From positions 192,001 through 256,000 of the forward strand of contig CAWIIV010000007.1 in assembly GCA_963836205.1 (NCBI GenBank): a DNA stretch of 64,000 bases, written 5' to 3'. Both the position numbers and the translations under genes were made by a program. This DNA is from an uncultured Acidimicrobiia bacterium (GTDB taxonomy: Bacteria; Actinomycetota; Acidimicrobiia; Acidimicrobiales; AC-14). Below the pieces are notes generated by a model. The model saw nothing but the letters and a program-made list of their open reading frames with translations, had not been told where the DNA came from and ran no database searches. Below, piece by piece: positions 8,146 through 37,714 of this stretch (positions are counted from its first letter, which is position 1; every line of letters starts with the position of its first letter).

Positions 8146-9224
8146 CGGGTCGACCGAGGCAGGCGCAGGGTGAACGTGGAACCCTCTCCCTCCCGGGAGG
8201 CGACCACGACGGTGCCCCCGTGGTTGGTGGCGACGTGGCGGACGATCGAGAGGCCCAAGCCGGTGCCGCCCGTCTCCCGGCTCCGGGCGCGGTCGACCCG
8301 GTAGAAGCGCTCGAAGACCCGTTCGAGGTCCTTGGCCGGGATGCCGATGCCCTGGTCGCGGACGGTGACGACGACCCACCCGTCGTCGAAGGCGGCGTCG
8401 ACCTCGACGACCGACCCCGGCTCCGAGTACTTGACCGCGTTGTCGAGCAGGTTGACCAGGGCCGAGACCAGCTGGCGCTCGTCGCCGAGCACCGGCATCG
8501 GCTCATCGGGCACCGTCACCAGCACCCTGACTTCACGCTGGGCGGCGACCGCGGCCAACCTGTCGGCCGCCGTGGCCACCACGTCGAGGATGTCGACCGA
8601 GGTCTCGACCAGCACCCCGCCGGCCTCGATGCGGGACAGGTCGAGCAGGTCGCCGATGAGCCGGCCCGCCCGCTCCGCCTCCGACATGATGTGCCGAGCG
8701 AGCCGGCGGACGATCTCCGGATCCTCCTCGACCGCGAGGGCCTCGGCGAGCACGCCCAGGGCCCCGATCGGCGTGCGCAGCTCGTGGCTCACGTTGGCCG
8801 CGAAGTCGCGGCGCACCGCCTCCAGCCGGCGCCGCTCGGAGATGTCCTCCACGAAGGCGATGGTGCCGAGGGGGACGTCGGTGGTGCCCAGGGGCACGGC
8901 CGTGATGTCGAGGGTGCGGGGTGGGGGACCGTGCAACTCGAGCGTCTGGCTCGACGTGTTGCCCTGCTGGGCGTCGGCGACCAACGTGTCGACGGTCGCC
9001 GCCACCAAGGCCGCGACATGCCGGTTGGTGTCGAGCTCGGCGTGCTGGCGGTTGCGGAGGACGAGCTGGCCGCGGGCGTCGTGGATCACGATCGCCGACG
9101 TGAGGGCGTCGAGCGCCCGCCGCAGGCGAACGGTCTCGGCCACCGCGTCGGCGGCCATCTGCTGCGAGTCCCGCAGGGCCCGGTCGGCCTCCTCGTTCCG
9201 GTGCCGGCGGAGGGGCGTGCTCAC
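8142..9224 (-). CDS. senX3: Sensor histidine kinase SenX3
   Basis: RRDFAANVSHELRTPIG, NLLDNAVKYS, DQGIGI, FERFYRVDRARSRETGGTGLGLSIV. Confidence 0.92.
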   Translation of the reverse strand: MSTPLRRHRNEEADRALRDSQQMAADAVAETVRLRRALDALTSAIVIHDARGQLVLRNRQHAELDTNRHVAALVAATVDTLVADAQQGNTSSQTLELHGPPPRTLDITAVPLGTTDVPLGTIAFVEDISERRRLEAVRRDFAANVSHELRTPIGALGVLAEALAVEEDPEIVRRLARHIMSEAERAGRLIGDLLDLSRIEAGGVLVETSVDILDVVATAADRLAAVAAQREVRVLVTVPDEPMPVLGDERQLVSALVNLLDNAVKYSEPGSVVEVDAAFDDGWVVVTVRDQGIGIPAKDLERVFERFYRVDRARSRETGGTGLGLSIVRHVATNHGGTVVVASREGEGSTFTLRLPRSTR

Positions 9225-21443: not shown

Positions 21444-22301
21444 TCAGGTCTTCACGGCCACGATCATGAGGTAGCGGAAGCTCTCCTCGCGGTAGGCGGC
21501 GAGGAACGCGTCCTCGATCCCGGTCCGGACCGACGACTGCTGGCGGAACGCCCAGTAGGGGATGGTCTGGGGGGTTAGGTCGAGGACGCGGATCGGCACC
21601 AGATCGTTGGCCGCCAACGCCTTGAAGTAGGTGCTCTGGGCGTGGACGTTGCAGATGTAGTGGTTGTCGATGGTGGTCACCGCGTCCGACTTGGCCCCCA
21701 GGGCGTCGTTGTAGCAACCGGTGATGCACACGTACCTCCCGCGAGGGGCGAGGAGGCGGGCGAACTCCCGGTAGAGGTCGAACAGGTCGACGTACATGGT
21801 GGTCTCGTTGGTCCAGATGGCCCGGAAGTCGGCGTCGGGGAAGCGGGTGTCGAGCATGTTCCGCAGGTGGAACCGGACCCTGTCGCCGATGCCGCGCCGC
21901 GCCGCCTGGTCGTTGGCGAAGTCGGCCTGGTACTGGGAGATCGTCACGCCGTCGACCCGGCAGCCGAAGCGGGCGTTGGCCATGATGCTCGTGCCTCCCC
22001 GGCCCGAACCGGCGTCGAGCAGTCGGTCGTCCGGACCGATGGGCCCCAGGCTGTCGAGGAGGACGTCGGCCTGGGCGGTTTCCAAGCGGTGGAGCTCCCG
22101 GATGACCAGTTCGTCCCGGACGTCGGTGGGCGCGTCGAGCAGGGAAAGGTCCGGGTCGCCGAGTCCATAGTGGTGGTGGTAGATGTCGTCGACCTTGCCC
22201 AGCTCGAGGTTCACCGGGTCGTTGGTGTTGGTGTTCCAGTAGTTGGCGACATCACGCTGGTAGTCGGTGGTCAAGACCTGACTGAGGTTGCTGGTGGCCA
22301 T
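21444..22301 (-). CDS. Geranyl diphosphate 2-C-methyltransferase
   Basis: YQRDVANYWN, VNLELG, YHHHYG, ELHRLETAQ, LDAGSGRGG, NETTMYVDL; AAGGG RBS. Confidence 0.92.
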   Translation of the reverse strand: MATSNLSQVLTTDYQRDVANYWNTNTNDPVNLELGKVDDIYHHHYGLGDPDLSLLDAPTDVRDELVIRELHRLETAQADVLLDSLGPIGPDDRLLDAGSGRGGTSIMANARFGCRVDGVTISQYQADFANDQAARRGIGDRVRFHLRNMLDTRFPDADFRAIWTNETTMYVDLFDLYREFARLLAPRGRYVCITGCYNDALGAKSDAVTTIDNHYICNVHAQSTYFKALAANDLVPIRVLDLTPQTIPYWAFRQQSSVRTGIEDAFLAAYREESFRYLMIVAVKT

Positions 22302-22416
22302 CAGGGTTCTCCCCTTTCCAAGGTTGTGGGCACGTGGTCTCGAGGTGGGCCGGATCGCGCCGGCGGAGACGGTCCGCCGATCACGGATCGGGTGCGCCGC
22401 CGCGGCCGCGGCGGGC

Positions 22417-22956
22417 TCACGGCCGGGCGCTGCGCCCGCCGAGCGCCTCGAACGATCGCCGCAGGACCTCGGCCGCCCACGGGGCACCGGCGGGCGACGT
22501 CACCAGCCGCATGGCGTCGGCGAAGGGCACGCGGGCGACCTCGTCGATCTCGGCCGGATCGGCCGCTACCTCCGCAGTCTCCGCCACCGCCACGAACACG
22601 TGGTCGTGTTCCCACTCGACGATGCCCGACGCCTCGTCCTCCGCCCGATAGACGAAGGAGCCGGCGGGCACGAGGCCGGACACGACCAGCCCCATCTCCT
22701 GGCAGGCCCGGCGGGCGGCGGCGTCGGCCGGGTTCTCCCCCGGCGAGGGGTGGGTGCAGCAGGTGTTCGCCCAGCGGCCGGGGAACGTCAGCTTGGACGC
22801 CGCCCGCCGCTGGAGCAGCCACCGGCCGGTTGGGTCCACCACCTGGAGGGACACCGCCAGGTGCAGGACGCCGGGAGCCGTGTGGGCAACGCTCCTCGCC
22901 ACCGCCGAGAGCGGGTCGAGGTCGGCACCGAGGGCGACGACCATCTGCTCGGTCAT
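22417..22956 (-). CDS. idi: Type 1 isopentenyl-diphosphate delta-isomerase
   Basis: HLAVS, LLQRRAASKLTFPGRWANTCCTHP, EWEHDHVF. Confidence 0.9.
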   Translation of the reverse strand: MTEQMVVALGADLDPLSAVARSVAHTAPGVLHLAVSLQVVDPTGRWLLQRRAASKLTFPGRWANTCCTHPSPGENPADAAARRACQEMGLVVSGLVPAGSFVYRAEDEASGIVEWEHDHVFVAVAETAEVAADPAEIDEVARVPFADAMRLVTSPAGAPWAAEVLRRSFEALGGRSARP

Positions 22957-24872
22957 CGGGGAACCGCCACTGCTCGCCCGGGCAGGGCCGCCAGCACCGA
23001 ACCGGCGATCCCGGGACCGTCAAGGCCGAGTTCCGCCAGGATGCGATCGGGGTGGCCGTGAGGAATGTACGAGTCGGGAACCCCGAGCACGAGGACCGTA
23101 GGGCGGGGGCGGCCGGCGACCGGCGCGTGGGCGGCCAGGCAGAGGGCGGCGGTCGCGCCGGCGCCGCCCTGCCGCGCCCCGTCCTCCACCGTGACCACCA
23201 GCCCATGGGCGGCGGCGTCGTCGAGCATGGCCGGGTCGAGGGGCTTCACCGCCCGCACGTCCCACACCGAGGACGCCACCCCTTCGTCGGCCAGGAGGCG
23301 GGCCGCCTCCTCGGCCGGGCGCAGCATCTTGCCCACGGCCAGGAAGCACACATCGCGTCCCCGGCGGACGCGGCGGGCGTGGCAGCCGTGGCCCACCCGC
23401 CCGAAGGGAGCGGCCGGGGCCGGGCCCTTCGGGTAGCGGATGGCGACCGGCCCGTCGAGGGAGAGGGCGTGGTCGAGCATCCCCGGCAGCTCGTCGGCCG
23501 ACGAGGGGGCGAGGATCGTCATGCCCGGAACCAGTTGGAGGAGTGCGAGGTCGAGCACGCCGTGGTGCGAAGGTCCGTCGTCACCGGTGATCCCGGCCCG
23601 GTCGATGCAGAACACCACCGGCAGCCGGTGGAGGCCGACGTCGAGATTCACCTGGTCGGTGGCCCGGGTGAGGAACGTCGAGTACACCGCGACGACCGGC
23701 CGCAGCCCGCCCATGGCCATGCCCGCGGCGGCGGTGACGGCGTGCTGCTCGGCGATGCCGACGTCGACCACGCGCTCCGGCCACCGCTCCTGGAACGGTC
23801 GTAGCCCGGTTGGACCGGCCATGGCCGCGGTGATGGCCATGAGGTCGGGCCGGCGCTCGCCGAGGTCGACCATCGCCCGGGCGAACACCTCGGTGTAGCC
23901 GGAGGGCACCCAGGGCGGGGGGCCGTGGGCCACGTCGAAAATGGGTGCGTCGTGAAGGCACCGCTCACGATCGTCCTCGGCCGGACCGTACCCCTGCCCC
24001 TTCCGGGTGAGCACATGCACGACGATCGGCCCGTCGTGCTCCGCGGCGAGGCCGAGGATGCGCTCCAGGCCGGCCAGGTCGTGACCGTCGACCGGGCCTA
24101 CGTAGCGGATGCCCAGGTCCTCGAAGAACCCGTCGGGGCTGACGGTCACCTCCCGCGCCGCGGCCCTGACCCCGTCGAGGCCGCGGTCGAGGTACTCGCC
24201 GATCCCGGGCACGCCCCGCGCCGCCCGGTGCAACCAGTCCCGCTGCCTGACGTAGGTCGGGCTGAGGCGCAGCCGGGTCAAACCCGAGGCGAGGCGGCCG
24301 ACGGTGGGGGCGTAGGAGCGGCCGTTGTCGTTGAGCACGATCAAGACCCGGGTCTGGCTGTGGCCCAGGTTGTTCAGCGCCTCGTAGGCCATGCCCCCGG
24401 TCATGGAGCCGTCGCCGACCACGGCCACGATGCGACGGGTCGGGTCGGTATGGGGGCCGTCATGCAGCCGAAAGGCGGTGCCCAGACCGTGGGCGTAGCC
24501 GAGGATGGTGGATGCGTGGCTGTTCTCGACCCAGTCGTGCTCCGACTCCGCCCGGCACGGGTAGCCCGACAGCCCGCCCGCCTGACGGAGGCGATCGAAC
24601 CCCGCCTGCCGGCCAGTCACGATCTTGTGGACGTAGGCCTGGTGGCCGGTGTCCCAGAGGATGACGTCACGAGGCGAGTCGAAGACCCGGTGCAGTGCGA
24701 GGGTGAGCTCGACCACGCCCAGGTTCGAGCCGAGGTGGCCGCCGTGGACGGCCACCGAGCGGACGATGAACTGGCGGATCTCGGCGGCCAGGCCCGCCAG
24801 TTGCTCCGGTCGCAGGCCCCGGAGGTCGGAGGGACCCTTGATCGCTTCCAGGGGCACGGACGGGGCCGTCAC
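22953..24872 (-). CDS. dxs: 1-deoxy-D-xylulose-5-phosphate synthase
   Basis: GGHLGSNLG, WDTGHQAYVHK, GDGSMTGGMAYEALNN, DVGIAEQH, DRAGITGDDGPSHHG. Confidence 0.96.
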   Translation of the reverse strand: MTAPSVPLEAIKGPSDLRGLRPEQLAGLAAEIRQFIVRSVAVHGGHLGSNLGVVELTLALHRVFDSPRDVILWDTGHQAYVHKIVTGRQAGFDRLRQAGGLSGYPCRAESEHDWVENSHASTILGYAHGLGTAFRLHDGPHTDPTRRIVAVVGDGSMTGGMAYEALNNLGHSQTRVLIVLNDNGRSYAPTVGRLASGLTRLRLSPTYVRQRDWLHRAARGVPGIGEYLDRGLDGVRAAAREVTVSPDGFFEDLGIRYVGPVDGHDLAGLERILGLAAEHDGPIVVHVLTRKGQGYGPAEDDRERCLHDAPIFDVAHGPPPWVPSGYTEVFARAMVDLGERRPDLMAITAAMAGPTGLRPFQERWPERVVDVGIAEQHAVTAAAGMAMGGLRPVVAVYSTFLTRATDQVNLDVGLHRLPVVFCIDRAGITGDDGPSHHGVLDLALLQLVPGMTILAPSSADELPGMLDHALSLDGPVAIRYPKGPAPAAPFGRVGHGCHARRVRRGRDVCFLAVGKMLRPAEEAARLLADEGVASSVWDVRAVKPLDPAMLDDAAAHGLVVTVEDGARQGGAGATAALCLAAHAPVAGRPRPTVLVLGVPDSYIPHGHPDRILAELGLDGPGIAGSVLAALPGRAVAVPR

Positions 24873-25924
24873 CGGTCGCGCCGGACCACGAGCTCCGCCA
24901 GCTTGCCCAGTTCGGCCCGAGGCCGCGCCAACGGTCCGGCCGCGTCCAGGTCGTCGAGGGCGGCCGCCAGGAGCCGGTCGACCTCGGCCAGGCTCCAGGC
25001 CCGGCCGCCGGCCGCATCCACCAGTTCCGCCGCCCGCCCGAGGTCGTCGTCGGCCATGGGCTCGTGACCGCGGTACAGCTCGGCCAGCTCAGCGCCGGCG
25101 GGAGAGCCCGACGTGAGGGCGGCCATCACCGGGAGCGACTTCTTGCGCCGGGCCAGATCGGCATGCACCGGCTTGCCCGTGACCGACGGGTCGCCCCAGA
25201 TGCCCAGCAGGTCGTCGACGTGCTGGAACGCGAGGCCGAGCTGCTCACCGAAACTGCGGAAGCGCTCGACGGCCTGAGGGCCGGCCCCGCCAAAACCGGC
25301 GCCCAGGGCGCAGGCCACGCCGATCAGGGCCGAGGTCTTCTTCTGGGCCATGCTCACGACCTCGGGCAGGGCCACGTCGTCCCGGGACTCGAAGGCGAGG
25401 TCGGCGATCTGGCCGTCGGTGAGAGCAAGCACGGCCTTGCTCAACGAGCTCACGCTGTCGCGAGCGGCGGCGTGCCCGCTGTTGGCCAGGACGCGGAGGC
25501 CGAGCGCCAGCAGGGCGTCGCCGACGAGGATCGCCTCGCCGATGCCGAAGACGGTCCACGCCGTCGGCCGGTGGCGCCGGGTCTCGTCGGCGTCCATGAC
25601 GTCGTCGTGGAGCAGGGAGAACTCGTGGACCAGGCCGATGGCCACCGCGGCCGGGATCGCGGCCTGGGCCCGACCCCCGGCCGCCTCGGCCGTCACCAGG
25701 ACGAGGGCCGACCGGAATCCCTTGCCCCCGATGCCCGGCGTCGGGGTGCCGTCGGCGTCCCACCAGCCGAACTGGTAGCCCGCGACCCGCCGAATCGACG
25801 GCGGCAGGCTGTCGACCGCCTCCCGGGCCGCCGGTTCCACCAGCCGGTTGGCCTCGTCCAGGACCTGGCGCACCGGACGGGCTTGTTCCAGAGCCGGCGG
25901 GCGTAGGCGGGCGGGCATGCCCAT
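24869..25924 (-). CDS. Polyprenyl synthetase (GPP/FPP synthase; family 2B encapsulin cargo-type)
   Basis: GGKGFR, FSLLHDDVMD..RRHRPT, KKT, FQHVDDLLGIWG, KKSLP. Start overlaps the shell stop codon. Confidence 0.92.
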   Translation of the reverse strand: MGMPARLRPPALEQARPVRQVLDEANRLVEPAAREAVDSLPPSIRRVAGYQFGWWDADGTPTPGIGGKGFRSALVLVTAEAAGGRAQAAIPAAVAIGLVHEFSLLHDDVMDADETRRHRPTAWTVFGIGEAILVGDALLALGLRVLANSGHAAARDSVSSLSKAVLALTDGQIADLAFESRDDVALPEVVSMAQKKTSALIGVACALGAGFGGAGPQAVERFRSFGEQLGLAFQHVDDLLGIWGDPSVTGKPVHADLARRKKSLPVMAALTSGSPAGAELAELYRGHEPMADDDLGRAAELVDAAGGRAWSLAEVDRLLAAALDDLDAAGPLARPRAELGKLAELVVRRDR

Positions 25925-27351
25925 CAGCGACCGATCTCCACGTTCTCGAGCACACCCAGGGCGTCGGGGACGAGAACGGCCACCGAGAAGTAGGTGCTGA
26001 CGAGGTAAGCGAGGACCGCCTTCTCGTTGATCCCCATGAACCGGGCGTTCAGCCCGGGCTCGACCTCGTCGGGGAGGCCGGTCTGGCGCAGGCCCACGAC
26101 GCCCTGGTCGTCCTCGCCGACCCGCATGCACAGCACGGAACTGGTCTGTTGCTCGGTGACGGGGATCTTGTTGCACGACAGGATGGGGACACCCCGCCAG
26201 GCGGGGACCAGCCGCCCGTCGACGTCGACCGGCTCCGGATACACACCACGGCGGTTGCACTCCCGGCCGAAGGCGGCGATGGTCCGGGCGTGGGCGAAGA
26301 GGAACTTCGCCTTGCGGCGGCGGGAGATGAGCTCGTCGAAGTCGTCCGGCGTCGGGGGGCCGGTGCGGGTCTGGATGCGCTGGGACAGGTCGGCGTTGTG
26401 GAGCAGGCCGAAGCTGCGGTTGTTGACCATCTCGTTCTCCTGGCGCTCCCGCAGGGCCTCGATGGTCAGGCGCAGCTGTTGCTCGGTCTGGTTCATGGGG
26501 TTGTTGTAGAGATCCGCCACCCGGGTGTGGACCCGCAGCACGGTCTGGGCCACGCTCAGCTCGTACTCCCGGGGGCTGGCCTCGTAGTCGACGAAGGTGC
26601 CGGGCAGCTCGGGCTCGCCCTCGTGTCCCGCGGCCAGCTCGATGGCGGCCTCGCCGTGGCGGTTCTGGGGCCGGGCCTGGCCGGCGGTGTAGGCCGCGAT
26701 GTGGGCGGCCAGGGCGGGCGAGGTGGCCACCACCGACTCGAAGGCGTCCTGGCTGAGCGTCAGGGCGATGACCGGCGTCACCGCCCGGGCGGTGAAGTCC
26801 CACGTGTCCTGGGACTCGACCAGGGCGGTGTAGGTGAAGTGCTCCCCGTCGGCCAGGGTGCCCAGCACCGTGTCCTCGCCGTACTTGCCGGCGCCGATCT
26901 TCTCCACCTTGCCGTGGGCGATGAGGCAGATCGAGTCGGCCGGCTCGCCCCGGGACACGATGACCTCGCCGGGGGCGTACTCCCGCTGCACGAAGCGGTC
27001 GGCCAGGGCGGCCAGCACCTCGTCGTCGTCGAAGGAGCGCAGCCCGGCCAGCTCCCGCAGCTCCTGGGGCACGACCCGGACCTCGGCCCCGGTGGAGATG
27101 AACGTCACCCGGCCGTCGCCCACCGAGTAGGTGAGGCGGCGGTTGACCCGGTAGCGGCCACCGGAGACCTCGACCCAAGGCAGCACCCGCAGCAGCCAGC
27201 GGGAGGAGATCTCCCGCATCTGGGGCGGGGTCTTGGTGGTGGTGGCCAGGTTGGCCGCGGCCTTGGTCGACAGGCTCATCTGGTCGCCGTTGGGACCGGT
27301 CGGGTCGTGCCCGTTCTGGGCCGCCAGGTCGGTCAGGGTGGTGTCGCTCAC
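25924..27351 (-). CDS. Family 2B encapsulin shell protein with cNMP-binding domain (copy A)
   Basis: [27 protein letters not shown], inserted cNMP domain, [49 protein letters not shown]. Confidence 0.92.
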
Positions 27352-27370
27352 AGATCAGTCCTCCAGTCCC
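26334..27370. repeat. 1,037-bp direct repeat, copy 1 (shell gene 5' two-thirds plus RBS)
   Basis: Matches 30095..31131 (offset 3,761) apart from three substitutions seen by eye. Confidence 0.9.
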
Positions 27371-27392
27371 GAACCAGCCGGGAGATCAGCGG

Positions 27393-29675
<2,283 letters not shown>

Positions 29676-31112
29676 TCAGGCCTCGAAGTGACCGAGCTCG
29701 ACGTTCTCCAGGATGGCGAGCGCGTCCGGCACCAGGACGGCGGCCGAGAAGTAGGTCGTGACGAGGTAGGAGATGATCGCCTTCTCGTTGATGCCCATGA
29801 ACCGCACGTTGAGGCCCGGTTGGTACTCGTCGGGCAGACCGGTCTGTTGCAGCCCCACCACGCCCTGGTCGGGCTCCCCCATGCGCATGCACATCACCGA
29901 GCTGGTGCGGGCCGGGCTGATCCCGATCTTGTTGCACGGCAGCACCGGCACCCCCCGCCAGGCGGGGACCTTCTGGCCGGCCATGTCGACGGCCTGCGGG
30001 TAGACGCCGCGGCGGGTGCACTCCCGGCCGAAGGCGGCGATAGCGCGGGGGTGGGCGAAGAAGAAGGCCGCGTCACGGACGTTGGCCAGCAGTCCGTCGA
30101 AGTCGTCCGGCGTCGGGGGGCCGGTGCGGGTCTGGATGCGCTGGGACAGGTCGGCGTTGTGGAGCAGGCCGAAGCTACGGTTGTTGACCATCTCGTTCTC
30201 CTGGCGCTCCCGCAGGGCCTCGATGGTCAGGCGCAGCTGTTGCTCGGTCTGGTTCATGGGGTTGTTGTAGAGATCCGCCACCCGGGTGTGGACCCGCAGC
30301 ACGGTCTGGGCCACGCTCAGCTCGTACTCCCGGGGGCTGGCCTCGTAGTCGACGAAGGTGCCGGGCAGCTCGGGCTCGCCCTCGTGTCCCGCGGCCAGCT
30401 CGATGGCGGCCTCGCCGTGGCGGTTCTGGGGCCGGGCCTGGCCGGCGGTGTAGGCCGCGATGTGGGCGGCCAGGGCGGGCGAGGTGGCCACCACCGACTC
30501 GAAGGCGTCCTGGCTGAGCGTCAGGGCGATGACCGGCGTCACCGCCCGGGCGGTGAAGTCCCACGTGTCCTGGGACTCGACCAGGGCGGTGTAGGTGAAG
30601 TGCTCCCCGTCGGCCAGGGTGCCCAGCACCGTGTCCTCGCCGTACTTGCCGGCGCCGATCCTCTCCACCTTGCCGTGGGCGATGAGGCAGATCGAGTCGG
30701 CCGGCTCGCCCCGGGACACGATGACCTCGCCGGGGGCGTACTCCCGCTGCACGAAGCGGTCGGCCAGGGCGGCCAGCACCTCGTCGTCGTCGAAGGACCG
30801 CAGCCCGGCCAGCTCCCGCAGCTCCTGGGGCACGACCCGGACCTCGGCCCCGGTGGAGATGAACGTCACCCGGCCGTCGCCCACCGAGTAGGTGAGGCGG
30901 CGGTTGACCCGGTAGCGGCCACCGGAGACCTCGACCCAAGGCAGCACCCGCAGCAGCCAGCGGGAGGAGATCTCCCGCATCTGGGGCGGGGTCTTGGTGG
31001 TGGTGGCCAGGTTGGCCGCGGCCTTGGTCGACAGGCTCATCTGGTCGCCGTTGGGACCGGTCGGGTCGTGCCCGTTCTGGGCCGCCAGGTCGGTCAGGGT
31101 GGTGTCGCTCAC
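29676..31112 (-). CDS. Family 2B encapsulin shell protein with cNMP-binding domain (copy B)
   Basis: Same motifs as copy A with a divergent C-terminal ~140 aa; GGAGG RBS. Confidence 0.92.
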
Positions 31113-31131
31113 AGATCAGTCCTCCAGTCCC
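30095..31131. repeat. 1,037-bp direct repeat, copy 2
   Basis: Counterpart of 26334..27370. Confidence 0.9.
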
Positions 31132-31283
31132 CAGCGGATTGGTAAGAACACTTCGGTTTTTTCATGACGGTCCGCGGGGCCGAGGAAGGTCGGATGGTTC
31201 ACCCGGAGTTGCACGCCGACACGCCCCGGATGCCGCTCCCCGTGACCGTACAAAGGGGCCCCGGACGTTCGTCACACGTAACG

Positions 31284-31335
31284 CCGTAGTCCTGATGGGT
31301 GGTGCCGGCGACCCTACGGAGACCCGTTCCGTAGG
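31284..31335. promoter_or_regulatory. CTACGG-type inverted repeats upstream of shell copy B
   Basis: CCGTAGTCCTG at 31284; CCTACGGA-N7-TCCGTAGG at 31313-31335. Confidence 0.45.
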
Positions 31336-31509
31336 CTTCGTGGGCTGTCCCGGCGGTCGCTGCCGGACGGCCGCGCTCGGGAGGGCAGCGTGTCGGGTGG
31401 GAGGAGGTGGAACTGGGGCGCCCGCGCCGCCGCCCCGTGCCGAGACCAGCGGGCCCCAGACCTGTCGAGCCGGCCAGGGAGGACTCTTCGGGCTCGGAAG
31501 GAGGACGTG

Positions 31510-32757
31510 TCAGCCGTGGTAGCGGCCGGTGGTGCTGTGCCACTCGCGGCTGCCACCGAGCCAGGCCCAGATGTCGGTCAGGAACCGGCGCAGCGCAAGG
31601 GAACCCAGCTGGCTGAGGATGGTGGCTTCCTCGACGAAGGCGTGCATCAGCTCGTTGTGGATCTCCACCGTGCGCTCGATCGCCTCCTCCCGAGAGCACT
31701 TCTCCTCGTTGGCGATCACTTTGGGTAGGTCGAAGTCGGTGTCGGATTCCGCGCCCATCGAGTACAGGTCGTTCAGGATCACGCTGGCGGTGCCAGCCAT
31801 GGCGAACACGCGCCGCACCCGCCGGTCGGCGAACTCGAAGGAAGGAACCTCGTAGCCGGCGACCGGATCGACCAGCACCATGGGCGGCAGGAAGCTGTTC
31901 TCGTTCCGGTGCAGCAGGTACTCCCACACGGGGGGGATCCGGCCTTCCCGACGCCACGTCGCCTCGTGGTTGTACGCCATGTACATCACCGCCAGCTCGT
32001 GGCGGAGCCGTGCCACCTGCGTCGCGCTCGCGTACCGGGCGAGGTGGGCGAATGCCGACTGGTAGGCAACCGCCACCGGTTCCTCCGACAGGACCTGGTC
32101 GAGTTGGAGCGCGTAGGTGATGGGGAGGTCGGCCGGGGCGATGGCGGCATAGCTCACCCCCAGGCGCCAGCCGATCGTGGCCGCGTCGGCTCCCAGGGAC
32201 TCGTCGTCGAGGAAGTGGTCGTCGGTGGCCCACTCGGCCAGGACGCACTTCGCCGCCGCCAGCAGCCGATCGGGGTCGTCGGTGCCCGGGTGGGTGAGCA
32301 TCATCAGGCGGCCGAAGTTGGCGGTGCGGACCTTCTCGAGCTGGCCGGGGTAGATCCCGACCTGCTCGGCCCAGTCCACCAGCTGGTCGTTGACCTCCTC
32401 GCCCAACGCCACGTCGTCGCGGACGGCCCCGGGGCAGAAGACCGCGGGAAAGGAACCATCGCGCGCCGGTGCGCCGGCGGCGTCCGGAACGCGGCGGACG
32501 GGTGCGGGCTCCACCGCGGGCGCGCCGTCACCCGGCAACAGGATGCGGGCGGCGGCCGTCCCCATCCCGGCCGGCCCCAGCGCCAGGTGGCGGGCGGTCG
32601 ACCCGAGCGGCTCGGGCAACGACACCGGCCGGCGCTCGGCGAGGGGACCGAGAAGATCCTGGGGGGCGGCCGGGTCGAGATTCGACAGGATGGCGGTCAC
32701 CAGGACCGCCACTTCGTCGGTGCCGACGGGTGCCGACAGACGCGACAGCAGCGACAT
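31510..32757 (-). CDS. 2-methylisoborneol / 2-methylenebornane-type monoterpene cyclase
   Basis: Pro/Ala-rich N-terminus with GPAGMGTAAARI; FCPGAVRDD, FGRLMMLTHP, DDHFLDD, NSFLP, NDLYS, WH..RY. GPP methyltransferase lies in the same cluster. Confidence 0.87.
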   Translation of the reverse strand: MSLLSRLSAPVGTDEVAVLVTAILSNLDPAAPQDLLGPLAERRPVSLPEPLGSTARHLALGPAGMGTAAARILLPGDGAPAVEPAPVRRVPDAAGAPARDGSFPAVFCPGAVRDDVALGEEVNDQLVDWAEQVGIYPGQLEKVRTANFGRLMMLTHPGTDDPDRLLAAAKCVLAEWATDDHFLDDESLGADAATIGWRLGVSYAAIAPADLPITYALQLDQVLSEEPVAVAYQSAFAHLARYASATQVARLRHELAVMYMAYNHEATWRREGRIPPVWEYLLHRNENSFLPPMVLVDPVAGYEVPSFEFADRRVRRVFAMAGTASVILNDLYSMGAESDTDFDLPKVIANEEKCSREEAIERTVEIHNELMHAFVEEATILSQLGSLALRRFLTDIWAWLGGSREWHSTTGRYHG

Positions 32758-33160
32758 GCTCAGCTCTCTCCTTCGGTAGGAACTCGGAGTGTGAACCTGG
32801 TCGTCATGGCCGAGCCCGGGCGCTCGGCCGGCGCCGCCGGTACCCGCCGCAACTCGGCGACGACGGCGACAGGTAGCGATGCCGGACCCCGCGGAGCTGG
32901 CGCTCGACCGGGTCTCGGGGTGCGGCTGTGGGCCCGATCGTGCCGCGAGATGCCCAGTCGACCCACCTCCCCTCGAGGATTGACCCCGTCGCCGACAACG
33001 TGCGACCGCCGCCGGCTGAGATTTCGCAGGAGCCCGTTGCCCACCTGTGCCCGGATGTCGCCGGCTCCCCGCCCGCGTCCCCTCACGAAAGGAGAGCACC
33101 GACCGACCGAGCACGAACCAGGGGGACGCTACCGAGCGGCGTCGCCACTCGTGACCCGAA

Positions 33161-33200
33161 TTCCCGTAGTCCTGGCGACGGTCAAAGAAGACTACGGAAA
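33161..33200. promoter_or_regulatory. Inverted repeat TTCCCGTAGTC-N18-GACTACGGAAA in the divergent promoter
   Basis: 10/11 dyad between the cyclase and the AAA-LuxR gene; same core as at 31284. Confidence 0.5.
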
Positions 33201-33266
33201 ACCGTCGCGTTCGCAGCCCCGAAGACCGGTCCATTGGTGAAACGACGGCACTACTCTGCGGCCGGG

Positions 33267-36038
33267 ATGGGCACGGTCGTGGGAGCTTCCGAGCCTGGAT
33301 TTGGCTATGTCGGTCCGCCGGAGCTGGAGATTCTGCGCGCCATGCTCGCCGATGCCCGCTCGGGACGACCCCAGTTCGTTCTCGTCCAGGGTGAGCGCGG
33401 CAGCGGCAAGAGCGCGTACCTCCGGCAGCTGTCGGTCGACCAGAGCGACCTCCGCGTCCTGTCGGCGACCGGCGACGAGGCGGAGGCGGAGCTGCGCTAC
33501 GGGCTGGTGGAGCACCTGACCCGCGCCGCCGGCAAAGGTGTCCCCGAGGAGTTGGCCGGGCTGTGCACCCGGACGACGGCGGCGCCCGATGCCTTCGTCG
33601 TCGGCCACGCGCTGCTGCGACTGCTGGTGACGATGCAAGAGGATGCTCCCGTCCTGGTCGTTGTCGACGACGCCGACCTCACCGATATCGACTCTCAGGT
33701 CGCCCTCCTCTTCGCGTTGCGGCGACTACACGACAGTCGGATCCTGACCGTCCTCGCCGCCCGCGAACCGGAACGGCTGCTCGATGGGATACACAAGCTC
33801 GCCGCCGCCGATCACGGCACGACGATCACCCTCCGGCGCCTCGACGACGGCGCGGTCATGGGCCTCACCACCTCGCTCATCGGCCGGCGGCCGCCGCGCC
33901 ACTTCGTGGAGCGGCTCCGCGAGCACACGGGCGGCAACCCGTCGCACGTCAGGGCGGTGCTGGGAGAACTCGAGCGGTCAGGGGCAGGCATGGTCGTCGA
34001 CGACCCGCTCCCGGCTCCCCGGGCGGTCGCGTCGCTGGTCTCCGAGCGGCTCTCAGAGTGCGTTCCCGGCGTCCGCCGGCTGGTGGCGGCCGCTGCCGTC
34101 CTCGGTCAGCGCAGCTCGGTCGAGTTGGTACGCAAGCTGGCCGAGATCGATGACCCCCTGCCGTCGCTCGAGGGTGCGGTCGGTGCCGGCTTGGTCGAGT
34201 ACCGGCGCCGTGAGGTCGTCTTCGCCGATCCGCTCGTCCGGGCCGCGGTGTACCACGATCTCGGCGTGGCCGAGCGGGCCGAGCTTCACGCTCAGGCCGC
34301 CCGCTTGGTCACTGAGGAGGGCGCCCGGCTCCGCCACCTGACGGCAGCCGCGTTCGACCACGACGGCGGGCTGGCGGCGGCTCTCGCCGACTTTGCGGCC
34401 CGGTCCGCGGCCGCCGGGTCCCCGCTGGGCGCGTCGGCATCGTTCGTCGACGCGGCCGACTTGGTCCCGCCCGGACCGGTGCGAGATGCCTACGCCTTCG
34501 ACGCGGTGGACTGCCTGCTGGCGGCGGGCGATGCGGCCGGGGCGGACCTGGTCGGATCGAGGTTGGTCGGCACCCGGTCCGACCCGACGGCGCTTGTCGT
34601 CCGGGGCCGAATCGCCCGGGTCGGCGGACAGTGGGAGGAGGCCGAGCGACTACTGACCGGTGCTCGGGACGCCCGTCCACCAGACGACGCCCGTCACCAG
34701 GCGCGGGTTGCCGACGAGCTCGCCGGGCTGTCCGTCGACCTCCTCCGGCCGGGTGAGGGAGAGCGATGGGCGGACGCCGCAATCGGAATCTCCGCCGGCT
34801 CCCCCTCCGGTTCCCTCTCACCGGCGGTGGCGTGGGGCCTGGTGCTGGCCGGCCGGTCGGTCGACGCGCTGGCGGCCTTCGAAGTGCACGAGCCCACGCT
34901 CGACGAGTCCCAACCTGAGCACGCGGGCCTGCTCCTCGGCCGGGTCCTCGCCGACCTCCACCGCGGGGCCGCCCGCGAGGCCCGCGAATGCGCCGTCCAG
35001 CAGGTGAGGATTGCAGCACGGTTCGGGCTGCTGCCTCTTCGACTGTGCGGGCTGGCGATGCTCTCCTTCGCCGAGTACCGCCTCGGGTGGTGGACCGAGG
35101 CCACCACCCACGCCGATCACGGATCGGAGCTGGCAGAGGCGGGCGGGCCTGGACTTCCTCGGACGATGCTGCATCTGGCGGCAATTCTTCCCCTCGCCGG
35201 CCGCGGGCAGTGGGAAGCGGCCGAGGCCCACGCCGCGAAGGGGGCAGAGGCCGCCGCGACACCGTTCGATCAGGCCCTGGCCTGGATGGGCCGAGCCACC
35301 CTGGCCCACGCCCGCGGCCAGCACGGAAAGGCGACCACCGCGGTCGCGTCCTTGCGAGCGGTGTGCGACGAGGGCGCGGTCGACGAGCCGGGCGGACTGT
35401 GGCCGTGGCAGGAACTGCAGGTCGACGCCCTGATCGGGCTGAGCCGATTCGACGACGCGGACGAGGTGCTCGGCCAGTTCGAGAGCCTGGCCGAGGCTCG
35501 CGGCAGCGTGGCCGCCATCGCCGTCGCGGCCAGGCTTCGCGGCTGCCTGGAGGCAGCCAAGGGGAGTGACCGGCAGGCGCATCTCGCCTTCACCCGGGCC
35601 CAAGAGGTCGGCGCCAAGGTGCCGGTGCCGTTCGAGAGGGCCCGGACGAACCTGGAAGTCGGTGCCTTCCTTCGTCGGGCCGGAAAGCGCACGGCGGCGG
35701 CGGCCGAGCTGAGGTCGGCTCGCGAGTGCTTCGATCGGCTGGGCGCCCGGCCCTACCTCGCCCGGTGCGACCGGGAGCTGGCCGCAGCCGGCCTCACCCC
35801 CCAGCGGCGGCGGGCCGCCAACGCGGAGGTGCTCACCCCCCAGGAGACGTCGGTCGCCGAGCTCGTCGCCCAGGGCAAGACCAACCGGGGCGTGGCCAGC
35901 GAGCTGGTCGTGAGCGTCAACACCATCGAGTACCACCTCAAGAACATCTACGCCAAGCTCGGAATCTCCTCCCGCAGCCAGCTCACCCTGCGCTTCGGGG
36001 TGCGTACCGCCACGGCCAGCGGGCCCGGCCCCGGCTGA
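33267..36038 (+). CDS. Large AAA-ATPase / LuxR (LAL-type) transcriptional regulator; start approximate
   Basis: Walker A GERGSGKS, VVDDAD, TGGNP; C-terminal LTPQE..GKTNRGVASELVVSVNTIEYHLKNIYAKLGISSR. Confidence 0.9.
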   Translation: MGTVVGASEPGFGYVGPPELEILRAMLADARSGRPQFVLVQGERGSGKSAYLRQLSVDQSDLRVLSATGDEAEAELRYGLVEHLTRAAGKGVPEELAGLCTRTTAAPDAFVVGHALLRLLVTMQEDAPVLVVVDDADLTDIDSQVALLFALRRLHDSRILTVLAAREPERLLDGIHKLAAADHGTTITLRRLDDGAVMGLTTSLIGRRPPRHFVERLREHTGGNPSHVRAVLGELERSGAGMVVDDPLPAPRAVASLVSERLSECVPGVRRLVAAAAVLGQRSSVELVRKLAEIDDPLPSLEGAVGAGLVEYRRREVVFADPLVRAAVYHDLGVAERAELHAQAARLVTEEGARLRHLTAAAFDHDGGLAAALADFAARSAAAGSPLGASASFVDAADLVPPGPVRDAYAFDAVDCLLAAGDAAGADLVGSRLVGTRSDPTALVVRGRIARVGGQWEEAERLLTGARDARPPDDARHQARVADELAGLSVDLLRPGEGERWADAAIGISAGSPSGSLSPAVAWGLVLAGRSVDALAAFEVHEPTLDESQPEHAGLLLGRVLADLHRGAAREARECAVQQVRIAARFGLLPLRLCGLAMLSFAEYRLGWWTEATTHADHGSELAEAGGPGLPRTMLHLAAILPLAGRGQWEAAEAHAAKGAEAAATPFDQALAWMGRATLAHARGQHGKATTAVASLRAVCDEGAVDEPGGLWPWQELQVDALIGLSRFDDADEVLGQFESLAEARGSVAAIAVAARLRGCLEAAKGSDRQAHLAFTRAQEVGAKVPVPFERARTNLEVGAFLRRAGKRTAAAAELRSARECFDRLGARPYLARCDRELAAAGLTPQRRRAANAEVLTPQETSVAELVAQGKTNRGVASELVVSVNTIEYHLKNIYAKLGISSRSQLTLRFGVRTATASGPGPG

Positions 36039-36277: not shown

Positions 36278-37440
36278 ATGTCCCAGCCCCGCCCGACGCG
36301 CCGAACGATCCGAGCGGTCCTCGCCCTGCTGGTGGTCGCTGCTCCACTGCAGCTGGCCGCGGCCGCAACGGCTCGGTCCGCACCCACGACGGCCGCGGCG
36401 AAATGCAACCTCCTCCAGAAGCTTCTGGGCCAGTGCCCGAAGCCGACGACCACGACGACGCCCGTTTCAACGTCTACGGCCGTCCCGACGACGACGGCCC
36501 TTCCGACGAGCACGGCCGTCGGCCGACGACGTGGAGCGGTCCGACGACGTGGAGCGGTCCGACGACGTGGAGCGGTCCGACGACGTCGGGCGCCCCGACG
36601 ACCACTGGCGTTCCGACGACGTCGACCGGTCCGACGACATCGATCGGTCCGACCACGACCACGACCTCGACTGCGGGCATCGCGTGCGGTGGCTACCCGA
36701 CGCTCCCGAAGACCGGCGGCGCCGCGTGGACCTGCGACTTCAATGACGAGTTCAACGGCACCGCCCTCGACCGGACCACGTGGTTTCCGCAGCCGACCAA
36801 AGGCAGCGGGTTCGACTCGAACGACCATGACTGCTTCATGGACTCCCCGAACAACGTGTCCGTGAACGGCGGGAACCTTGTTCTCACCAGCCGGCAGGAG
36901 CCGGCTCCGTTCGTCTGCGAGGACACGGTTCCCCGCACCACGCAGTTCACGTCCGGATCAGTCTCGACCTATCAGCGGAGGAGCGTGAACCGCGGCCGGG
37001 TCGAGGTCCGAGCGAAGGTCATCTCGGCCAAGGTCCAGGGCACACACACCGCGTTCTGGCTGTTTCCGCAGGATCTGAACGGTGGCCCGGGCAGGGCCGA
37101 GATCGACATCGCCGAGATCTATGGCACCTACAGCGATCGTGCGATCCCCTACATCCACCACCCACTGTCGGCCCTGGACAGCAGCGACACGAACAACTAC
37201 TGCATGATCGCGAACATCGCCGACTGGAACACCTATGTCGTCGAGTGGACCGCTCAATCGATCACGATCATCTACAACGGTCAGGTCTGCCTGACCAACA
37301 CGATGGGCGCGTCCACCTTCAACAGGGACTTCATGGTGGCGCTCACGCAGGGCCTCGGCTGGCCGGGGAACGATTTTCAACCCGGGGTTACACCGCTGCC
37401 AGCGCAAACCGTCGTGGACTACGTCCGCGTCTACAAATAG
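36278..37440 (+). CDS. Secreted GH16 glycoside hydrolase with Thr/Pro linker (frameshift near 36520)
   Basis: AAGGAG RBS and signal peptide in one frame; DEFNGTALD, AFWL, EIDIAE and VDYVRVY in the next. Confidence 0.85.
36523..36585 (+). repeat. 18-bp tandem repeat CCGACGACGTGGAGCGGT x3 (encodes PTTWSG)
   Basis: Seen directly in the GH16 linker. Confidence 0.85.
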
Positions 37441-37641
37441 GCTTGTGTCCGTGGGTCCGCCGAGTGCGTGACCGCGATCCTTGGAGAACGCGGCAACCGC
37501 CGCTGCCGAATCTGGACCGCCACGCCGCCGAGCTGCTGACCACAGATGTGTGTCAACGCCGGCCGACCACCCGAAACGCCGCAGGTGGGGCGACGTATCG
37601 AGCGGGATCCGCGCAGAAACGCCCAGTTCAGACGCACGTAG

Positions 37642-37714
37642 AGCCCGAGAGGAGATTCGAACTCCTGACCTGCTCATTACGAGTGAGCTGCTCTACCGAC
37701 TGAGCTACCCGGGC
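37642..37714 (-). tRNA. tRNA-Thr(CGT)
   Basis: GCCCGGGTAGCTCAGTCGGTAGAGCA, anticodon arm GCTCA-CTCGTAA-TGAGC, T-loop GTTCGAATC; CCA not encoded. Confidence 0.95.

Follow-up and report, generated by a model that had tools for sequence, protein, structure and literature searches.

Can one locus carry both a geosmin and a 2-methylisoborneol (2-MIB) encapsulin system, for two compounds of earthy odour, and, if so, which of its enzymes are cargo and how are its two shell genes related? The question is raised by a 64,000-nucleotide stretch of one contig, hereafter the window, from an uncultured soil actinobacterium whose draft genome comprises 4.05 Mb in 25 contigs and is 88.6% complete. The non-streptomycete origin proposed in an initial annotation of this DNA was confirmed, the same-genus MAGs being uncultured Acidimicrobiia.

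Gene content and distribution of the cluster

All nine genes named in the initial annotation were recovered in place by Pfam and NCBIfam matches, with some starts refined (Table 1). Eight lie on the minus strand within 21444-36038, in the order 2-MIBS-like cyclase, Enc1, GeoA, Enc2, polyprenyl synthase (PT), dxs, idi, and GPP 2-C-methyltransferase, and the full series of steps claimed for them is encoded: MEP entry, IPP/DMAPP isomerisation, chain elongation, C-methylation, and two cyclisations. The overlapping stop and start codons described earlier are present at shell A/PT (ATGA), PT/dxs (GTGA), and dxs/idi (ATGA), 4 nt each, as is the wide separation of the cyclase from the methyltransferase, with 9.2 kb between the stop of the former and the start of the latter and the geosmin/PT/MEP module nested in that interval. 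The methyltransferase start at 22301 is preceded by an RBS. The gap between the cyclase and Enc1 is probably the promoter/operator and RBS of an operon running from Enc1 to the methyltransferase; RNAalifold support for a structure there is weak (covariation term +2). The start codon of the divergent regulator is uncertain (the first ATG is ORF residue 113), and the gene occupies the same position in relatives, at 61-68% identity. A second dxs elsewhere in the genome (G000:C20, 630 bits) makes the cluster dxs an extra copy, and the cluster idi is the sole NF002995 match in the 88.6%-complete genome.

Table 1. Features of the combined cluster, in window coordinates.
Feature	Position	Strand	Length and supporting evidence
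Divergent large ATP-binding LuxR-type regulator	32928..36038	+	Pfam AAA_16 + GerE
2-MIBS-like C11 terpene cyclase	31510..32757	-	415 aa; f2_encap_cargo2 485.5 bits (cut-off 400), Terpene_syn_C_2
Cyclase cargo-loading peptide GPAGMGTAAAR	32545..32577	-	residues 61-71
Gap between cyclase and Enc1	31113..31509	-	397 nt; blocks conserved in five genomes (alignment)
Enc1-type Family 2B shell (shell B)	29676..31112	-	478 aa; encap_f2b 775.4 bits
Homogenised tract, copy 1	30088..31124	-	RBS + codons 1-342 of shell B (N-arm, CBD, first HK97 part)
Two-domain germacradienol/geosmin-type synthase GeoA	27393..29639	-	748 aa; f2_encap_cargo3 1121 bits (cut-off 1200)
GeoA C-terminal cargo-loading peptide CLP2	27444..27476	-	residues 722-732
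Enc2-type Family 2B shell (shell A)	25924..27351	-	475 aa; encap_f2b 772.2 bits
Homogenised tract, copy 2	26327..27363	-	RBS + codons 1-342 of shell A
Polyprenyl diphosphate synthase	24869..25924	-	351 aa; polyprenyl_synt E 9e-55; f2_encap_cargo4 (NF041169) 450.0 bits (cut-off 450)
dxs (1-deoxy-D-xylulose-5-phosphate synthase)	22953..24872	-	639 aa; TIGR00204 579.7 bits
idi, type 1 isopentenyl-diphosphate isomerase	22417..22956	-	179 aa; NF002995 152 bits (cut-off 127)
Geranyl diphosphate 2-C-methyltransferase	21444..22301	-	285 aa; NF041943 equivalog 462.9 bits (cut-off 400)

Among the 80 nearest public loci, the exact gene order of the window occurs only in same-genus MAGs. The eight-gene order together with the regulator recurs in three other genomes (G001, G002, and G006), and a fourth (G003) holds a degraded cluster in which the cyclase is reduced to residues 1-39 and then pieces of 334-414 and the methyltransferase is absent. 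The flanking CHAT-TPR and GH16 genes gave no tblastn match (E<=1e-10) across the 86 loci examined. Judged from these sequences, the genus of the window has conserved the cluster as a unit.

The rarity implied by the initial annotation did not hold: GeoA, a 2-MIBS-like cyclase, the methyltransferase, and Family 2B shells stand together in 24 of the 80 loci, with GeoA less than 10 kb from the cyclase (25 loci if one split GeoA is included), and all of these are MAGs. The prevailing order in the GeoA-linked loci is Enc-GeoA-TC-MT-Enc-PT-dxs. The statement that geosmin and 2-MIB loci are normally separate in Streptomyces agrees with our survey of the 80 loci, in which none from Streptomyces showed a GeoA less than 10 kb away. 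In a quick tree, a single 35-row clade with an SH-aLRT of 99 holds all 26 GeoA-linked cyclases (the 24, L008, and the window), which places the cluster, on sequence evidence, among combined geosmin/2-MIB encapsulin clusters of uncultured Actinomycetota that form one clade. Such combined clusters may already be depicted in supplementary figures of the papers cited here.

The two cyclases and their loading peptides

Both the 2-MIBS-like cyclase and GeoA carry a GxxG(L/M)GT..AAR loading peptide, and they look like the only two cargo-type enzymes of the cluster. Encapsulated GeoA and encapsulated 2-MIBS have each been demonstrated experimentally in other systems, as has loading by the same peptide types (PMC13739066; PMC11550324).

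The cyclase ATG has GAAGGAGA upstream and opens a disordered loading domain of ~120 aa; the Asp-rich motif DDHFLDDE follows at residue 179. The peptide fits the GPxGLGT consensus described for the 2-MIBS loading motif (PMC11550324), with Met at the consensus Leu position. G61, P62, G64, G66, and R71 are invariant in 18/18 aligned related cyclases, the flanks of the loading domain being otherwise variable; a regular expression search did not find the motif in the cyclase of L010.

The product of this enzyme could be another C11 terpene, since the best PDB match, S. coelicolor 2-methylisoborneol synthase 3v1v, reaches only E 3.2e-49 and the canonical Streptomyces and Actinoplanes cyclase loci are about 47-56% identical to the enzyme of the window. 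Related enzymes yield other C11 products. If the single-domain cyclase made a different methylated monoterpene from 2-methyl-GPP (e.g. of the 2-methylenebornane type), the cluster would be one for geosmin plus another C11 compound, and it would fit that the cyclase sits in a well-supported clade apart from its Streptomyces and Actinoplanes counterparts. We regard this as possible but rather unlikely, given that the nearest solved structure is a 2-MIBS, that the cyclase passes the NCBIfam 2-MIBS-like cargo model, and that the cluster includes an equivalog-level GPP 2-C-methyltransferase.

GeoA scores below the cut-off of its cargo model and has two Terpene_syn_C_2 stretches, with the motifs DDHFLE at 89, NDLFSYQRE at 233, DDLVP at 465, and NDLFSYQKE at 608. 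Its CLP2 matches the peptide by which M. xanthus GeoA is loaded (PMC13739066). The interdomain CLP1 has a degenerate form, both in the window and in relatives with the same gene order. Across 29 GeoA HSPs, G[LMIV]GT was present at the C-terminus in 24 and in the linker in 16.

Gene conversion between the shell genes

Shell B has SrpI-like and cNMP_binding domains (Pfam), matches PDB entries 9bix, 9bhu, and 9bje (E 2e-200 to 8e-192), and contains two Enc1-like motifs in its C-terminal part, LLANVRD among them. Shell A contains an RRRK that aligns, in the 9bix alignment, with R340RRK343 of Sl-Enc2, a diagnostic motif described in PMC11071501. The 1-kb repeat pointed out in the initial annotation lies within these two genes and is real; what had been overlooked is its concerted evolution. 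The two 1037-nt copies differ at 3 positions, extend from 12 nt upstream of the shell start codons to nt 1025, and form direct repeats 3761 nt apart with GeoA between them; past nt 1025, identity drops to about 75-78%.

The same pattern recurs across five genomes. In the N part (first ~1025 nt, about two thirds of the gene), shell pairs are 92.7-99.9% identical within a genome versus 88.6-93.6% between genomes, and in the C part they are 75-80% identical within a genome versus 81.7-89.8% between orthologues. The two shell copies of each genome accordingly pair together in the N-part tree (support 0.97-1.0), and upstream-type and downstream-type copies split in the C-part tree (0.94 and 0.997). 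The tract runs to codon 342/343 both in the window and in L001; in L002 it stops near codon 334, where there is a frameshift. None of the 21 fixed Enc1/Enc2 differences falls before residue 342. The high N-part identity within each genome and its fall past ~1025 nt indicate that the shell genes undergo recurrent, bounded gene conversion, by which the RBS, N-arm, CBD, and first HK97 part are kept near-identical per genome. By the alignments, conversion ends a few codons ahead of the published Enc1/Enc2 diagnostic motif 1, and the Enc1 and Enc2 identities are distinct only in the last ~135 residues, home of the published A-domain diagnostic motifs. No comparable N-part homogenisation was found in two-shell loci outside the genus, and N-part identity in L013, L016, and L036 is 68-72%. 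Bounded conversion of the shell genes appears to be a new point.

The confinement of the fixed differences to the C-terminal part, including the loop aligned with luminal diagnostic motif 2, would also suit two separate compartments, in which Enc1 and Enc2 form or favour their own shells with one cyclase each and luminal A-domain differences in the motif 2 region set cargo preference; a speculation in PMC11071501 that the motif 2 loop could support distinct cargo loading points the same way. However, the cyclase and GeoA bear the same peptide type, G003 keeps both shell genes (one frameshifted) despite having only a cyclase remnant, and M. xanthus is described as using two shell proteins, stochastically incorporated, for GeoA alone (PMC13739066). 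We therefore consider separate compartments improbable.

Proposed working and comparison with known systems

The locus as a whole is probably best explained as a geosmin and 2-MIB encapsulin cluster with mixed shells, two cargos, and recurrent shell-gene conversion. To a geosmin encapsulin system, a 2-MIB branch would have been added, with the 2-MIBS-like cyclase upstream and the GPP 2-C-methyltransferase at the far end, along with a dedicated precursor supply through the second dxs and idi. By homology, the divergent LuxR-type regulator would activate the cyclase gene and the Enc1-to-methyltransferase operon, and Enc1 and Enc2 would assemble together into T=1 shells of mixed composition. GeoA, by its C-terminal peptide, and the cyclase, by its N-terminal one, would be packaged at the same luminal pockets; the polyprenyl synthase, methyltransferase, DXS, and IDI would remain outside, with FPP and 2-methyl-GPP entering through the shell pores. 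For this host, the packaging, the mixing of the shells, and the products are predictions from homology.

The proposal of a multi-cargo compartment would hold for the two cyclases, but its extension to up to three cargo enzymes is not supported, as the polyprenyl synthase lacks both an N-terminal loading domain and a GLGT motif. Were the synthase a third cargo, elongation and cyclisation could be channelled inside the shell; it matches the NCBIfam model 'family 2 encapsulin cargo protein polyprenyl transferase' exactly at cut-off, and lies directly 3' of Enc2, the site of putative PT cargos in PMC11071501. Cargo PTs, however, are defined in PMC8346489 by a disordered N-terminus of 50-100 residues, and here the PT ATG overlaps the Enc2 TGA, leaving about 19 residues ahead of the catalytic domain; the open frame upstream of the PT match is likewise at most 19 codons in six of the 11 related clusters with a PT row. 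A third cargo is accordingly quite doubtful.

It is very improbable that the locus or its near-perfect repeat is an artefact, whether a chimeric join, as the initial annotation feared, or diverged copies homogenised by consensus polishing: the genome is a draft, the same-genus genomes appear to share one MAG series, and public short contigs end at the repeat, no read or contig recovered spanning a copy, but the exact gene order recurs in three other species-level genomes of the genus, the repeats in two of these are 92.7% and 97.2% identical and so would not confuse an assembler, the tract ends just ahead of a functionally defined motif, and for each shell the unique C-terminal part is present, without a single difference, in the independent run X1. 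In several relatives Enc1, Enc2, or GeoA carries frameshifts, which may be sequencing errors or decay.

The mixed-shell, two-cargo cluster proposed here shares features with several described systems. Like M. xanthus MxEnc1/MxEnc2 (Fazal et al., 2026, PMC13739066), it has two Family 2B shell genes and a two-domain geosmin synthase with a C-terminal loading peptide (GLGTSAAR). Unlike that system as described, GeoA lies between the shell genes with CLP1 degenerate, the two shell proteins do not differ over residues 1-342, and a second cyclase, methyltransferase, PT, dxs, and idi are added. With S. griseus Sg Enc (EshA) and its 2-MIBS cargo (Andreas and Giessen, 2024, PMC11550324), the window shares a Family 2B shell, a GPP methyltransferase, and a 2-MIBS-like cyclase whose disordered N-terminus bears a GPxGLGT-type motif, apart from its Met for Leu; the S. 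griseus locus is described as a compact Enc-2-MIBS-MT with one shell gene, whereas the cyclase and methyltransferase of the window are far apart.

The Enc1-TC-Enc2-PT order is that of the published two-component Family 2B operon type TC/PT, represented by S. lydicus Sl-Enc1/Sl-Enc2 (PMC11071501); the RRRK of Enc2 fits this type, and the motif-1 and motif-2 regions of Enc1 resemble those of Sl-Enc1. That paper reports that Enc1s group with one another and that variation is greatest in the CBDs, whereas in the genus of the window the Enc1-with-Enc1 grouping is limited to the last ~135 residues and the N-arm and CBD are homogenised per genome. Also close are the Enc-GeoA-TC-MT-Enc-PT-dxs clusters of Pseudonocardiales, Pseudonocardiaceae, and Actinomycetota MAGs (L009-L053), which share the gene set, the cyclase clade, and loading peptides on both cyclases. 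In these, unlike in the window, the cyclase adjoins the methyltransferase, both lying between the shells, no idi was seen in the stretch examined, and the shell paralogues have diverged over their whole length, in contrast to the homogenised N part of the window pair.

Gene content and candidate cargo enzymes

Pfam and NCBIfam profiles confirmed nine genes within 21444-36038 of the window (G+C ~70%), eight of them on the reverse strand and one regulator gene diverging from these on the forward strand, and the gene-level description of the sequence in the initial annotation was correct, including the junctions, which we re-examined. The shell A/polyprenyl synthase, polyprenyl synthase/dxs and dxs/idi junctions are 4-base overlaps, the remaining intergenic gaps measure 36, 41 and 115 nt, and 397 nt separate the cyclase from the first shell gene; the cyclase start was set at an ATG with GAAGGAGA ahead of it. 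The core of this arrangement is a two-component Family 2B terpene cyclase (TC)/polyprenyl synthase (PT) encapsulin operon, extended by a 2-methylisoborneol (2-MIB) branch and MEP genes. The divergent gene has the N-terminal AAA/STAND NTPase and C-terminal GerE helix-turn-helix (Pfam) of a LAL-like regulator and is, by homology, a putative pathway regulator; packaging, products and regulation of the cluster as a whole are likewise predicted from homology.

Genes of the encapsulin cluster, with profile scores where available
Gene	Position	Strand	Profile evidence
GPP 2-C-methyltransferase	21444-22301	-	NF041943, 462.9 bits (cut-off 400)
Type-1 idi	22417-22956	-	
dxs	22953-24872	-	
Polyprenyl synthase	24869-25924	-	
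Family 2B shell A	25924-27351	-	encap_f2b, 772 bits
Two-domain geosmin-type synthase	27393-29639	-	f2_encap_cargo3, 1121.1 bits (below cut-off 1200)
Family 2B shell B	29676-31112	-	encap_f2b, 775 bits
Single-domain terpene cyclase, 415 aa	31510-32757	-	f2_encap_cargo2, 485.5 bits (cut-off 400)
AAA_16 + GerE regulator, divergent	32928-36038 (start uncertain)	+	AAA_16, E 7.8e-14; GerE, E 2.5e-15

Both shell proteins carry an SrpI-like HK97-type domain (PF19307, E 1e-138 and 1.2e-138), match the PDB shell entries 9bix, 9bhu and 9bje at E<=1e-188, and contain at residues 123-210 a cNMP-binding fold (PF00027), the inserted domain that separates Family 2B from Family 2A. Both also score far above the encap_f2b equivalog cut-off of 400, and by homology both would be expected to self-assemble into a closed, cargo-loaded shell. 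Their genes start 3761 nt apart, within the 10 kb in which two 2B shell genes are taken as a two-component system. Using the motifs given for the Streptomyces lydicus shells Sl-Enc1 and Sl-Enc2 in the available part of PMC11071501, we found that the downstream copy (shell A, Enc2-type) has an RRRK aligned with the RRRK of Sl-Enc2 at diagnostic motif 1, and that the upstream copy (shell B, Enc1-type) has NVRD at the position of TVWK in Sl-Enc1 and a second motif at the position of AVDFHGHSLP.

The nearest solved structure to the cyclase is 3v1v, the S. coelicolor 2-MIB synthase (2-MIBS; E 3.2e-49), and this match, the single domain and the f2_encap_cargo2 score above cut-off place the enzyme among the relatives of 2-MIBS, with 2-MIB as its predicted product. 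The GPP 2-C-methyltransferase is co-encoded in the cluster, though 9.2 kb distant. Ahead of its catalytic domain the cyclase has a putative N-terminal loading domain, disordered and about 120 residues long, which includes GPAGMGTAAAR at residues 61-71, of which GPAGMGT (residues 61-67) fits the GPxGLGT loading motif except for Met in place of Leu; all 18 aligned cyclases share G61, P62, G64, G66 and R71, in a region that is otherwise variable. GPTGLGT(SAAR) motifs have been described (PMC8346489). A prediction for the complex of cyclase residues 40-95 with Enc2 residues 225-475 in three copies scored 0.01 and carries no weight either way. A GLGT-like peptide in another frame past the cyclase stop (~31440-31480) lacks conservation in three relatives' loci (L001, L004 and L006) and was dismissed as chance.

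The geosmin-type synthase (GeoA) comprises two Terpene_syn_C_2 stretches (Pfam) and has both metal-binding motif pairs, the motifs chosen being ones that we take to be diagnostic of class I cyclase domains. Its same-genus homologues likewise fall short of the f2_encap_cargo3 cut-off. The C-terminal cargo-loading peptide, CLP2, is present at residues 722-732; CLP1, in the interdomain linker, is degenerate in the window and in same-order relatives, and most other combined clusters keep both peptides. In Myxococcus xanthus GeoA, the two loading peptides are reported to be redundant, either one being enough for loading (PMC13739066).

Up to three cargo enzymes had been proposed at the outset, a number reduced by the PT, which has neither an N-terminal loading domain nor a GLGT motif. 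Its start codon overlaps the Enc2 stop and only ~19 residues lie before its catalytic domain, whereas cargo PTs are described as having a disordered N-terminus 50-100 residues long (PMC8346489). Among the 11 related clusters with a listed PT match, the open frame upstream of PT is at most 19 codons in six. Judged by these sequence features, the cargo enzymes are probably two, the cyclase and GeoA.

The host draft genome (4.05 Mb in 25 contigs, 88.6% complete; the window lies on contig C7) has no 2B shell genes beyond the two of the cluster, one terpene synthase elsewhere, and three polyprenyl synthases; no further type-1 idi was found in this 88.6% complete genome. A second dxs, on contig C20, scores higher than the cluster dxs, so that the latter is additional to it, in keeping with a dedicated precursor supply.

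Distribution and flanks of the combined cluster

Among 40 relatives, GeoA matches (E<=1e-100) occur in five of seven same-genus genomes and in one other genus of the family; 16 genomes from the order's remaining families yielded none. We compared the six GeoA places so found. Three (genomes G001, G002 and G006) hold the eight genes in the window's order together with the divergent regulator; G003 retains the order with a cyclase remnant (residues 1-39, then pieces of 334-414) and no methyltransferase; and in G004 and G016 the 2-MIB pair is divergent from GeoA, the two shell genes of G016 lying just outside the stretch compared. Lesions attributable to either decay or sequencing errors were seen in G003 (locus L002), where the cyclase is internally deleted (4989-5303) and Enc1 is frameshifted (~6550), and in G006 (locus L006), with frameshifts in Enc2 and GeoA (~8620-8675, 10465).

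The genes flanking the cluster, encoding CHAT-TPR and GH16 proteins, gave no tblastn match (E<=1e-10) in any of 86 loci, and what travels as one unit is therefore the stretch from regulator to methyltransferase. Across 400 other genomes sampled evenly from the class, we found no methyltransferase, no GeoA and a single 2B shell (G034:C28:3658-5040, 573.7 bits). Within the genomes searched, the cluster is clearly limited to one small group of the class, which suggests horizontal acquisition.

The surroundings contain several other features. An 896-aa TPR and CHAT-domain protein (18414-21104, +) adjoins the methyltransferase end, and a GH16-family glycoside hydrolase (36403-37440, +) has 18-nt repeats at 36449-36675 that encode N-terminal (G)PTTW/S units; neither gene is kept beside the cluster in relatives. 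The window's only tRNA, a tRNA-Thr (CGT) at 37641-37714 (-), lies 1.6 kb past the regulator end of the cluster and could mark the insertion site of an acquired island. Further away, ~4.2 kb of degenerate tandem repeats (49696-53990; periods 9-54 nt, GC skew 0.43-0.46) fall within a 1581-aa open reading frame (49316-54061, -) that has no Pfam match; inspected by eye, the consensus units of the repeats suggest a giant low-complexity protein rich in Thr, Pro and Ser.

The Enc1 leader (31113-31509, -) contains blocks conserved in five genomes (the window, L001, L002, L004 and L006): TTTTCCGTAGG, GACTACGGNGTT.CG, TTTTGTA and CCAATCC..CTGGGGACTGGAGG. These are retained even where the cyclase is a remnant and are probably promoter or operator elements and a ribosome-binding site. 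RNAalifold did not support a structured RNA in the 397-nt leader (-17.5 kcal/mol, covariation term +2, few compensatory pairs). The leader block GACTACGGNGTTNCG occurs six times in the window with at most two mismatches, against 2.2 expected, which is not significant, and a consensus scan of the window, which is uninformative, returned no promoter-like and five terminator-like sequences, the latter against 3.5 expected.

A wider search of species-representative genomes, with the cyclase as query, yielded 103 relatives; the best 80 loci were analysed further. We called a locus GeoA-linked when a match with at least 450 aligned residues and at least 45% identity lay up to 10 kb either side of the cyclase. 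On this definition 24 of the best 80 of 103 are GeoA-linked, all 24 being metagenome-assembled genomes (MAGs) by record title; at least two shell genes are present in 26 of the 80, and GeoA together with at least two shells in 21. The count leaves out L008, in which GeoA is split by a frameshift; L025, whose two-domain cyclase is only 41% identical; L001, L003, L004 and L006, which are the same places as L007, L012, L010 and L008; and L002 and L005, which were anchored on GeoA rather than on the cyclase. The rarity implied by the initial annotation does not hold: the combination is no one-off, and many uncultured Actinomycetota hold it in other gene orders. The usual one, in MAGs with Pseudonocardiales or Pseudonocardiaceae titles, is Enc-GeoA-cyclase-methyltransferase-Enc-PT-dxs. 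Among the best 80 of 103, the cyclase and methyltransferase stand at opposite ends only in the window's genus (L007, L008 and L010), and no Streptomyces-titled locus has a GeoA within 10 kb.

In a quick maximum-likelihood IQ-TREE phylogeny of the cyclase domain (at least 280 aligned residues; 79 of 80 loci pass, L080 being absent), all 26 GeoA-linked rows (the 24, L008 and the window) belong to a single clade (35 rows, SH-aLRT 99), in which several of the nine other rows are short or truncated contigs. This single clade argues that the combined cluster is recurrent, and probably of single origin, in uncultured Actinomycetota.

Homogenisation of the 5' parts of the two shell genes

From 12 nt upstream of the GTG start to nt 1025, the two shell genes of the window differ at three positions; beyond nt 1025 they are ~75-78% identical. 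The same division is seen across the genus. Over the first ~1025 nt (the N part), the two copies within a genome are 99.9% identical in G001, 99.8% in G003, 97.2% in G002, 93.4% in G004 and 92.7% in G006, and identity between genomes is only 88.6-93.6%. Over the remainder (the C part), copies within a genome are 75-80% identical, versus 81.7-89.8% for orthologous copies between genomes. Accordingly, each genome's two copies pair in the N-part tree (support 0.97-1.0), and upstream-type and downstream-type copies split across genomes in the C-part tree (0.94 and 0.997). Purifying selection as the cause of the repeat is ruled out because the copies are closer within than between genomes, a pattern that points instead to recurrent gene conversion. 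N-part homogenisation was not seen outside the genus, either in the two-shell loci included in the trees (L013, L016 and L036) or in 20 more identity profiles.

In both the window and G001 the tract ends at codon 342/343, and in G003 at ~codon 334, at a frameshift; in the alignment with Sl-Enc1 and Sl-Enc2, this boundary lies a few codons ahead of the diagnostic motif 1 position. Four Enc1-type sequences are told apart from four Enc2-type ones by 21 columns, every one of them at residue 342 or later, clustering at 342-351, 374-381, 390-401 and 411-414, and Enc1 carries a three-residue C-terminal extension relative to Enc2. The N-arm, the cNMP-binding-fold domain (CBD) and the opening part of the HK97 fold are thus kept identical, and the C-terminal part with the A-domain motifs keeps two identities.

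Two Rfam matches also lie within the homogenised tract, antisense to the 5' parts of the shell genes. These are full-length matches to RF02735 (Sernc350, a Saccharopolyspora antisense sRNA) at 26786-27294 (+) and 30547-31055 (+), with 117.5 and 110.9 bits against a gathering score of 50. They may be mere conservation of encapsulin coding sequence, and they suggest an antisense transcript over 2B shell genes seen elsewhere.

A chimeric join at the 1-kb repeat had been raised as a concern from the start. Reads from four runs over the locus give short, low-depth contigs only, none of which spans a repeat copy, and the same-genus genomes are apparently one MAG series, so that the homogenised tract is known from that assembly method alone. 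An artefact, whether a chimera or a product of polishing, is nevertheless unlikely: relatives with imperfect repeats keep the same gene order, several genomes have the boundary in common, next to a functional motif, and the unique C-terminal parts of both shells are present with 0 differences in an independent short-read run.

GeoA sits between the 1-kb direct repeats, and recombination between these would delete the C-terminal part of Enc1, GeoA and the N part of Enc2, leaving a one-shell 2-MIB cluster. We found no evidence of such a loop-out between the repeats. Two read joints were considered and set aside, one skipping 4261 nt (20-letter side) and the other, in a diverged relative, skipping 177 nt; neither is the 3761-nt loop-out predicted for repeat recombination.

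Relation to known encapsulin systems

Of the earthy taste-and-odour compounds, the two main ones are geosmin and 2-MIB. The production of each inside a Family 2B encapsulin was shown recently, in separate model organisms: encapsulation of GeoA in a two-component shell in M. xanthus (PMC13739066) and of 2-MIBS in S. griseus (PMC11550324). In the full-text literature, as far as the texts were accessible, we found no main-text account of an encapsulin cluster that combines GeoA with a 2-MIBS-type cyclase; supplements may show such operons (PMC13739066 Figure S2, PMC8346489, PMC11071501). The clusters described here mean that many uncultured soil Actinomycetota encode both odorant branches, a shell and precursor supply as one unit, which makes co-encapsulation and co-regulation directly testable, and they mark out a small lineage of Acidimicrobiia that may produce odorants.

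We offer a combined reading tentatively, as a possibility with the balance somewhat against it: that GeoA and the 2-MIBS-type cyclase are packaged together in a single mixed Enc1/Enc2 shell in uncultured soil Actinomycetota, that selection-bounded conversion in the window's genus yields Enc1/Enc2 chimeras, and that the 1-kb repeats permit loop-out and regain of the geosmin module. If this were true, mixed-shell assembly, pore state and cargo preference would all be set by the last ~135 residues and not by N-arm or CBD sequence.

The bounded gene conversion of shell paralogues looks to be the new part of the finding; in accessible full text, "encapsulin" and "gene conversion" occur together only in a giant-virus paper. 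Published statements hold that Enc1s are nearer to one another than each is to its Enc2 partner and that CBDs vary the most of all parts (PMC11071501). A homogenised N-arm and CBD joined to a divergent C part qualifies both: Enc1-with-Enc1 kinship holds here for the last ~430 nt and fails over the first 1025 nt, where copies pair by genome. For pore states, published work points to N-arms and CBDs, both of which are identical in sequence between the protomers here. The repeat amounts to a natural experiment on the importance of N-arm sequence to the Enc1/Enc2 difference, and the bounded conversion to a ready natural domain swap for what makes Enc1 and Enc2 functionally different.

The wider cluster also has precedents in the sections available from Andreas & Giessen 2021 (PMC8346489), which count 165 Family 2B systems that have TC as well as PT and describe TC operons as enriched in C-methyltransferases and IPP isomerases, and PT operons in precursor genes. 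An exact counterpart is the two-component "TC/PT" operon of the S. lydicus study, where, in the part of that text available, TC lies between Enc1 and Enc2 and PT directly follows Enc2 (PMC11071501), as in the core of the window's cluster.
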